In this document: positions 32,690 through 32,940 of the stretch, in pieces
How positions within the stretch are numbered: the stretch's first letter is position 1
Layout: every line of letters starts with the position of its first letter
Virus record (IMG/VR): IMGVR_UViG_641736163_000010
Reading direction: 5' to 3' (one strand)
DNA from: a virus
Taxonomy: Duplodnaviria; Heunggongvirae; Uroviricota; Caudoviricetes
DNA: 39,990 nucleotides
The notes under the pieces: model-generated
The model's input: the letters and a program-made list of their open reading frames with translations, nothing else
What the model was told of the DNA's origin: nothing
Databases searched by the model: none
Position numbers and translations under genes: made by a program

Positions 32690-32764
32690 CACCACCAGAA
32701 ACAACAGGAGTGCAACCACAGCTGCTTAGAAGGCAATTGCTCTGTCCGGCTGAGCTAACAACGC
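32690..32764 (-). tRNA. tRNA-Arg(UCU)-like, probably degenerate (good acceptor 5' strand, D-arm and anticodon arm; no convincing T-arm or 3' acceptor strand)
   Basis: Minus strand GCGTTGTTAGCTCAGCCGGACAGAGCAATTGCCTTCTAAGCAGC...; anticodon loop CTTCTAA; downstream sequence does not pair back to the acceptor. Confidence 0.35.
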
Positions 32765-32778
32765 AGAATACCGATAAA

Positions 32779-32855
32779 TGGACCGCCATCGAGAACTCGA
32801 ACCCCGCGCAACCAGCTTCGAAGGCTGGCGCTCTATCCCGATGAGCTAATGGTGG
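32779..32855 (-). tRNA. tRNA-Arg (anticodon UCG), argN-like of lambdoid phages
   Basis: Minus strand folds as cloverleaf: D-stem GCTC/GAGC, anticodon stem CCAGC/GCTGG with loop CTTCGAA, T-loop TTCGAGT, 3' CCA; one acceptor mismatch and G-U pairs in T-stem. Confidence 0.7.
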
Positions 32856-32864
32856 TATGTGATA

Positions 32865-32940
32865 TGGTGGCCCTTGCTGGATTTGAACCAGCGACCTGGC
32901 GATTATGAGTCGCTCGCTCTCACCACTGAGCTAAAGGGCC
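32865..32940 (-). tRNA. tRNA-Ile2 (anticodon CAU, lysidine type; annotated ileZ in Stx phages) or tRNA-Met
   Basis: Minus strand GGCCCTTTAGCTCAGTGGTGAGAGCGAGCGACTCATAATCGCCAGGTCGCTGGTTCAAATCCAGCAAGGGCCACCA: canonical cloverleaf, anticodon CAT, encoded CCA; closely resembles E. coli ileX. Confidence 0.85.

Follow-up and report, generated by a model that had tools for sequence, protein, structure and literature searches.

The stretch of DNA considered here, IMG/VR virus record IMGVR_UViG_641736163_000010 (Caudoviricetes; 39,990 nucleotides (nt), hereafter the window), carries on its minus strand a small cluster of transfer RNA (tRNA) genes just downstream of a gene for a DNA methyltransferase (Table 1). 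Exactly two tRNA genes, ileZ and argN, are called by ARAGORN in the whole window, both on the minus strand, and neither ARAGORN nor the Rfam tRNA family (RF00005, gathering score 29) recovers a third. The stop codon of the methyltransferase gene lies 50 nt upstream of the first of them. From 32960 to 32723, 238 nt are 95% identical to the ileZ-argN-argO cluster of phages 933W and VT2-Sakai and of about 290 further phage records, the majority of them Shiga toxin (Stx)-converting, with many Stx2 phages included; the gene order, the spacers of about 10–14 nt and the colinearity with 933W are all kept through nucleotide 42 of argO. An earlier note on this DNA had placed three tRNA-like sequences at this position and had likened them to the ileZ-argN-argO arrangement of Stx-type lambdoid phages, and both the coordinates given by ARAGORN and Rfam and the alignment bear it out. 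The cluster lies in the late region, downstream of the gene for the antiterminator Q and upstream of an esterase gene and the lysis genes. The window very probably holds the cargo tRNA cluster of Stx-type lambdoid phages, within an Escherichia coli prophage, in a state in which not all three members are intact: the third gene, argO, is truncated.

The argO remnant comprises the 5′ acceptor strand, the D-arm, the 5′ strand of the anticodon stem, the anticodon loop (with the anticodon TCT at 32730..32728) and three nucleotides of the 3′ strand of the stem, while the T-arm, the 3′ acceptor strand and the CCA end are missing. The sequence 32764..32723 matches argO of 933W at 41 of 42 positions and the commoner A37 allele at all 42, and homology to argO ends abruptly after 32723, within the 3′ strand of the anticodon stem. 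Under permissive settings, Rfam returns a partial tRNA match at 32755..32721 (model positions 10–42, 14.2 bits, E = 6.7); the further weak matches between 32400 and 33000, among them YrlA, Plastid-ycf2 and SNORD103, coincide in every case with the two genuine tRNA genes and were dismissed as noise. The 3′ half of argO was not found anywhere in the window with a 32-nt query and up to three mismatches allowed, so that both a split gene and an insertion are rejected. Together with the 80 nt downstream of it, the stump folds no more stably than shuffled sequences (z = +0.40). Processing by RNase P, the CCA end and recognition by the synthetase all need the acceptor/T-arm minihelix. Since this minihelix cannot form, the argO stump would be neither processed by RNase P nor charged, and is in all likelihood non-functional. 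The suspicion of the earlier note that a third gene with a TCT anticodon, for which it could find no T-arm or 3′ acceptor strand, was a pseudo-tRNA has thus found its explanation in a truncation after nucleotide 42; neither ARAGORN nor Rfam folds this gene canonically, and the first two genes pass covariance scoring at 72.5 and 44.9 bits.

The DNA on the other side of the break belongs to a protein-coding gene. From 32722 onward, the sequence aligns in frame, from codon 8, with tciB of JLK-2012, Evi and PPyecE_EH1910. This identity was recognized by distant BLAST searches with the right-hand part alone; a search of IMG/VR for the right-hand parent with an exact 25-mer returned only matches that already carried the junction. 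TciB is a small membrane protein of the DUF3927 family whose gene normally follows tciA, which encodes a TerB-like protein of 143 amino acids (aa; PF05099). In the three reference genomes, intact tciB encodes 54–55 aa and begins at a GTG codon that overlaps the tciA stop codon (GTGA). The remnant at 32722..32580 is 94.7% identical to tciB of JLK-2012 and its 3′ flank. It scores 42.6 bits against PF13064 (cut-off 25) and covers profile positions 11–39 of 53, compared with 71.7 bits and positions 4–50 of 53 for the full-length TciB of JLK-2012; the length of about 54 aa, the gene's own start codon and the coupling to tciA have all been lost.

The ancestral arrangement survives in relatives. The order argO, terminator hairpin, spacer of about 150 nt, tciA and tciB is present in at least 13 IMG/VR contigs. 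Aligned to the prophage on contig IMGVR_UViG_2609459833_000005 (L046), which carries the same type of tciB allele, the window shows one clean gap of 654 bp, and no microhomology is present in this comparison, as the ends of the deletion share no bases. The missing 654 bp extend from nucleotide 43 of argO to nucleotide 21 of tciB and comprise the argO T-arm, 3′ acceptor strand and CCA, the terminator behind argO, all of tciA and codons 1–7 of tciB; the ribosome-binding site of tciB (GGAG) lies within the deleted stretch as well. A single illegitimate, that is, non-homologous deletion of about 654 bp would have fused nucleotide 42 of argO to codon 8 of tciB. The argO stump is accordingly read, with high confidence, as an ordinary pseudogene made by deletion rather than as the outcome of mutational degeneration.

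The tciB remnant would then have suffered a second lesion. A deletion of one nucleotide near 32627/32626 (GTGGTGG to GTGTGG) shifts the reading frame and replaces the conserved C-terminus ...VVVVAFPLLKKKASGD by ...VWLLLSRC. Among the matches listed, this frameshift is present in 28 of the 32 copies that carry the junction and absent in four, and it is therefore the later of the two events. The Prokaryotic Genome Annotation Pipeline (PGAP) annotates a 38-aa “DUF3927 family protein” (WP_000226111.1) on the minus strand from GTG 32719 to TGA 32603. The GTG in question corresponds to the internal Val9 codon of TciB, and the frame is closed upstream by a TAA at 32728..32726, which is made up of the final anticodon base of argO and the two bases behind it. 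This open reading frame (ORF) is probably a doubly damaged tciB pseudogene that has been mistaken for a gene.

The two remaining members of the cluster differ in their state. ileZ forms a complete cloverleaf (72.5 bits) and is identical in sequence to ileZ of 933W. It shares 68 of 76 positions with ileX of E. coli K-12, which is annotated as tRNA-Ile(CAU); pair 6–67 has changed in a compensatory manner, and ileZ retains C4-G69 and C5-G68 of an Ile2-type body, pairs which we take to be determinants for TilS. PGAP labels a locus 100% identical to that of the window as tRNA-Ile; the label “tRNA-Met” given by ARAGORN merely reflects the unmodified anticodon. Identity with the 933W gene, likeness to ileX and the PGAP call thus support the designation as tRNA-Ile2, which the earlier note had also proposed, and the CAU anticodon is presumably lysidine-modified and would read AUA. 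argN also scores above the family threshold, at 44.9 bits as opposed to 54.8 bits for argN of 933W. When threaded onto the cloverleaf, the window gene shows an A3·C70 mismatch in the acceptor stem and the wobble pairs G51·U63 and G53·U61 in the T-stem; it differs from its 933W counterpart at four positions, and two of these changes make pairing weaker. The statement of the earlier note that the first two genes fold convincingly thus holds in full for ileZ and has to be qualified for argN, which is a recognizable tRNA that appears structurally weakened and of doubtful competence. Judged by predicted structure, ileZ would be the only certainly competent tRNA in this prophage.

The junction is widespread in E. 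coli. An 87-nt query centered on it was covered to at least 80% in 325 of 5,426 complete E. coli genomes (about 6%), and at least the 5′ half of argO is present in 2,489 of these genomes. All 32 copies found with the right-hand 25-mer (30 IMG/VR contigs, the window and one further sequence, L002; matches listed) share the identical junction. It also occurs in four deposited phage records, vB_EcoS-733R4, -640R1, -716R1 and -813R8, where a 411-nt query spanning the junction is covered in a single piece and the right-hand part is 99.5% identical. The break always falls at the same base, which indicates that the junction goes back to one old event. It is found behind three argN haplotypes and several spacer variants, which indicates that the DNA to its left was reshuffled by homologous recombination after the deletion. 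In scans of one genome per species, the junction was found in no representative, and the argO core was confined to Escherichia and two contigs of metagenome-assembled genomes labeled as non-Escherichia, which we take to be mis-binned.

Several points weigh against the interpretation of the locus as the inert product of a deletion. The exact parental phage was not found, and the flanks of L046 differ from the window by about 5%, so that illegitimate recombination between phages is indistinguishable from a deletion within one genome. PGAP accepts the 38-aa ORF as a real protein, and that the argO stump is non-functional is deduced from its predicted structure. The survey copies come from redundant collections and from the matches listed, and the numbers count sequences, not independent events. 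Finally, the persistence of the junction, its spread to about 6% of the genomes and its association with three argN haplotypes could reflect neutral hitch-hiking, but they could also reflect some use.

Across related prophages, the three genes have fared unequally. When ARAGORN was run on 148 clusters (matches listed, as for the following counts), ileZ, argN and argO were all called in 74, ileZ and argO with an unrecognizable argN in 38, ileZ and argN with a truncated argO in 28, and ileZ only with a truncated argO in three; the remaining five show other combinations. The sequence of ileZ is the same in 137 of 141 copies. Nearly all intact argO alleles thread onto the cloverleaf without mismatch, and a compensatory double change in the argO T-stem occurs at nine loci. 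argN, by comparison, is very variable: of its 144 copies, 63 are free of mispaired positions, 11 carry a single mismatch and 31 carry two or three, whereas the other 39 are grossly degenerate. argN is under much weaker constraint than ileZ and argO across lambdoid prophages, and ileZ is probably the only member of the cluster under strong selection. The argN haplotype of the window occurs exclusively with a truncated argO (10 of 10 copies). Decay appears to have continued in the lineage that carries the junction, as seen in the tciB frameshift, the argN haplotype with A3·C70 and three copies with an unrecognizable argN.

Other explanations of the truncation were weighed, among them the scar of a site-specific integration in which argO served a mobile element as attachment (att) site and was split by it. 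The break does fall in the anticodon arm, where some tyrosine integrases are known to cross over. Furthermore, a recent preprint reports abundant tRNA matches flanking PasA/PasC, near RusA and TerB genes, and reads such matches in prophage regions as remnants of integration sites (bioRxiv 10.64898/2026.05.13.724894). Integration into a tRNA gene, however, as a rule restores a complete gene at one end and leaves a 3′ fragment at the other, whereas only a 5′ fragment is present here and no 3′ half of argO exists in the window. Beyond the break, the sequence continues within tciB from codon 8, with the usual gene order and orientation, and no end of an element is seen; relatives have both genes 654 bp apart with nothing inserted, which points to a deletion; and no integrase gene lies nearby, so that the locus does not have the make-up of an att remnant. 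An integration scar is consequently considered very improbable. There is even less reason to believe in a functional non-canonical tRNA (split, permuted, intron-containing or armless) that was missed by the programs. Its acceptor 5′ strand, D-arm and anticodon loop are conserved in the 32 copies, with a single variant in two of them, but this conservation is accounted for by recent common descent. No complementary 3′ acceptor strand or T-arm is found downstream or elsewhere in the window, the 125-nt fold is no more stable than shuffled sequences (z-score given above) and is not tRNA-like, ARAGORN finds nothing when introns are allowed, and the downstream sequence is that of tciB. An assembly or sequencing artefact is practically inconceivable, given that the same junction occurs in 325 independently assembled complete genomes, 30 IMG/VR contigs and four phage records.

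A further alternative is that the fusion has been co-opted, with the putative tRNA promoter pT and the stump providing a 5′ leader for a shortened DUF3927 membrane peptide that starts at GTG 32719, or with read-through from the cluster feeding STnc100, a small RNA encoded downstream. Loss of the terminator behind argO may allow transcripts from pT to run on into the tciB remnant and STnc100 copy 1, whose own terminator (32349..32330) is the next strong one on this strand. The commonness of the junction, its presence in deposited phage records and the clean ORF accepted by PGAP, which is preceded by an in-frame TAA in the anticodon loop with the GTG 6 nt further on, are in line with this idea. 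On the other hand, the GGAG Shine-Dalgarno sequence and the coupling to tciA are gone, nothing resembling a Shine-Dalgarno sequence precedes GTG 32719, and the frameshift in 28 of 32 copies, with loss of the conserved C-terminal part, is a pattern of decay. That a constitutive tRNA promoter drives a transcript with a tRNA leader, the shortened DUF3927 peptide and STnc100 is therefore regarded as improbable, if less so than the alternatives above. Were it true, the expression of a prophage regulatory RNA would be rewired in lysogens, which could explain the spread of the junction to about 6% of the genomes. Deletion followed by decay is preferred here.

The system to which the truncated cluster belongs is already known and is part of the textbook picture of Stx-type lambdoid phages. 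The genome of 933W was reportedly described together with the ileZ-argN-argO cluster by Plunkett and colleagues in 1999. The tRNA clusters of Stx phages have been proposed to supply decoders for codons that are rare in E. coli, and this is most likely what the present cluster would do. In the annotation of 933W, the three genes read AUA, CGN and AGA, and a putative promoter, pT, is placed in front of them. A homologous element in the window ends 10 nt upstream of ileZ; its -35 hexamer agrees with the consensus at three of six positions, for which reason it is not listed by a consensus promoter scan, and it probably serves as the promoter of the cluster. Usage in the window amounts to 9.1 AUA, 5.9 AGA, 4.9 AGG and 14.6 CGG per 1,000 codons, as counted in a crude set of 35 ORFs of which some are possibly spurious. 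These values lie above what we take to be the E. coli averages.

Compared with 933W (AF125520), VT2-Sakai and other Stx phages, the window has the same gene order, spacing and orientation toward Q and the late genes. It shares with 933W an identical ileZ, a homologous pT, and STnc100 and a nanS-p/yjhS-like esterase gene downstream, but differs in that argO is cut after nucleotide 42 and that a methyltransferase gene stands between Q and the tRNA genes. The tRNA genes lie at the late-region cargo position that is occupied by stxAB in Stx phages; where 933W has stxAB, the window has the tciB remnant, two copies of STnc100 and a small ORF. The L046 prophage is colinear with the window on both flanks and has the same tRNA cluster, and the window differs from it by the missing 654 bp and the additional 1-nt deletion in tciB. 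In JLK-2012, Evi and PPyecE_EH1910 a complete tciA precedes tciB, whereas the window lacks tciA and the start of tciB. JLK-2012 (L151, 650–883) carries another trio, tRNA-Asn, -Thr and -Gly, at the same position between Q and tciA-tciB, so that the slot takes alternative tRNA cassettes. mEp460_ev081 (LR597641) has the same cluster after a homologous Q and, farther along, a DUF3927 ORF and STnc100. It mirrors the decay seen in the window: its argO is intact (68.0 bits), while the anticodon arm of its argN is scrambled and the gene is called by neither ARAGORN nor Rfam. About 500 bp of unrelated DNA separate argO from the DUF3927 ORF in this phage. Fragments of tRNA genes are also known from the att sites of E. 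coli K-12 prophages, for example the argU-derived fragment at DLP12. Like the argO stump, these are short, unexpressed pieces of tRNA genes beside prophage DNA; unlike the stump, which is a 5′ piece left by a deletion in the cargo region, they are 3′ duplicates generated by site-specific integration.

Table 1. Features of the tRNA cluster and its surroundings in the window.
Feature	Position	Strand	Basis or remarks
ileZ, tRNA-Ile2 (CAU), intact	32865..32940	minus	ARAGORN; Rfam 72.5 bits
argN, tRNA-Arg (UCG), weakened	32779..32855	minus	ARAGORN; Rfam 44.9 bits
argO remnant, nt 1–42 of the tRNA-Arg(UCU) gene	32723..32764	minus	Alignments to 933W and L046
Deletion junction	32722..32723	minus	argO nt 42 (A) joined to first base of tciB codon 8 (G)
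tciB remnant	32580..32722	minus	Pfam DUF3927 (PF13064), alignment, translations
Putative tRNA promoter pT	32950..32978	minus	TTGCAG, 17-nt spacer, TATTAT; homologous to pT of 933W (AF125520)
N6/N4 DNA methyltransferase, 349 aa	32990-34039	minus	Pfam PF01555
Q antiterminator	34614-35435	minus	PF03589
STnc100, copy 1	32514..32321	minus	RF02076, 138 bits
55-aa ORF between the STnc100 copies	32317..32150	minus	No Pfam match
STnc100, copy 2	32045..31857	minus	RF02076, 132.5 bits
SASA esterase	29379-31250	minus	
Holin and lysozyme		minus	Beyond the esterase

On the minus strand, the genes preceding the cluster are, in order, hokD, a gene for a helix-turn-helix/ImmA protein, DUF968, RusA, Q, a small ORF and the methyltransferase gene; after the tRNA genes follow the two STnc100 copies, a SASA/nanS-p-like esterase, holin, lysozyme and Rz. 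The tandem copies of STnc100 lie about 470 bp apart and each terminates in the hairpin GCCCCTCTCCGGAGGGGC; at the equivalent place, 933W and mEp460_ev081 each possess a single copy. Inside the 5′ end of each copy, a promoter-like sequence (TTAACA-16-GACAAT) is present on the opposite strand, at 32495-32522 and 32026-32053. Behind the 55-aa ORF, a hairpin CCAGGCTCGCTCCGGCGGGCCTTTTT at 32140..32115 (minus strand) shows homology to the terminator normally situated behind argO, as in the undeleted relatives. It was considered as a mark of a displaced second piece of argO and rejected, as only the 27-nt hairpin is shared. It looks like a reused module, since there is no tRNA sequence ahead of it. 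An ORF named anti-adapter protein IraM by PGAP (31496..31831, plus strand) is situated between STnc100 copy 2 and the esterase gene; it gives no Pfam match at E ≤ 0.01, and AUA is frequent among its codons (6 in 111). Elsewhere in the window, a full-length match to IS009 (Rfam RF02111, 221 bits) is located at 1378..1576 on the minus strand, within or beside the tail-fibre region of the prophage.

The small RNAs PasA and PasC, which might have overlapped the locus, were absent from the window when it was searched with the probes of table S6 of Pearl Mizrahi 2021 (PMC8550237), allowing up to three mismatches. The position of the cluster next to tciA, with its TerB-like product, in undeleted relatives suggests that the tRNA matches described beside PasA/PasC are phage-borne ileZ-argN-argO cargo. 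The open-access papers searched for ileZ/argN/argO and for tciA/tciB/DUF3927 included none on this particular junction. PGAP leaves the argO stump unannotated, and the undescribed junction together with the unannotated stump is an annotation gap, not a discovery.

The importance of the locus beyond annotation is small. The argO stump deserves to be annotated as a tRNA pseudogene, and WP_000226111.1 is probably a truncated and frameshifted remnant of tciB. The locus also calls for caution, as tRNA matches in the late regions of lambdoid prophages are to be read as phage cargo and not as scars of integration sites. Lastly, it illustrates uneven selection on cargo tRNAs, in which ileZ, the reader of AUA, is nearly invariant and argO usually intact, while argN has often decayed.

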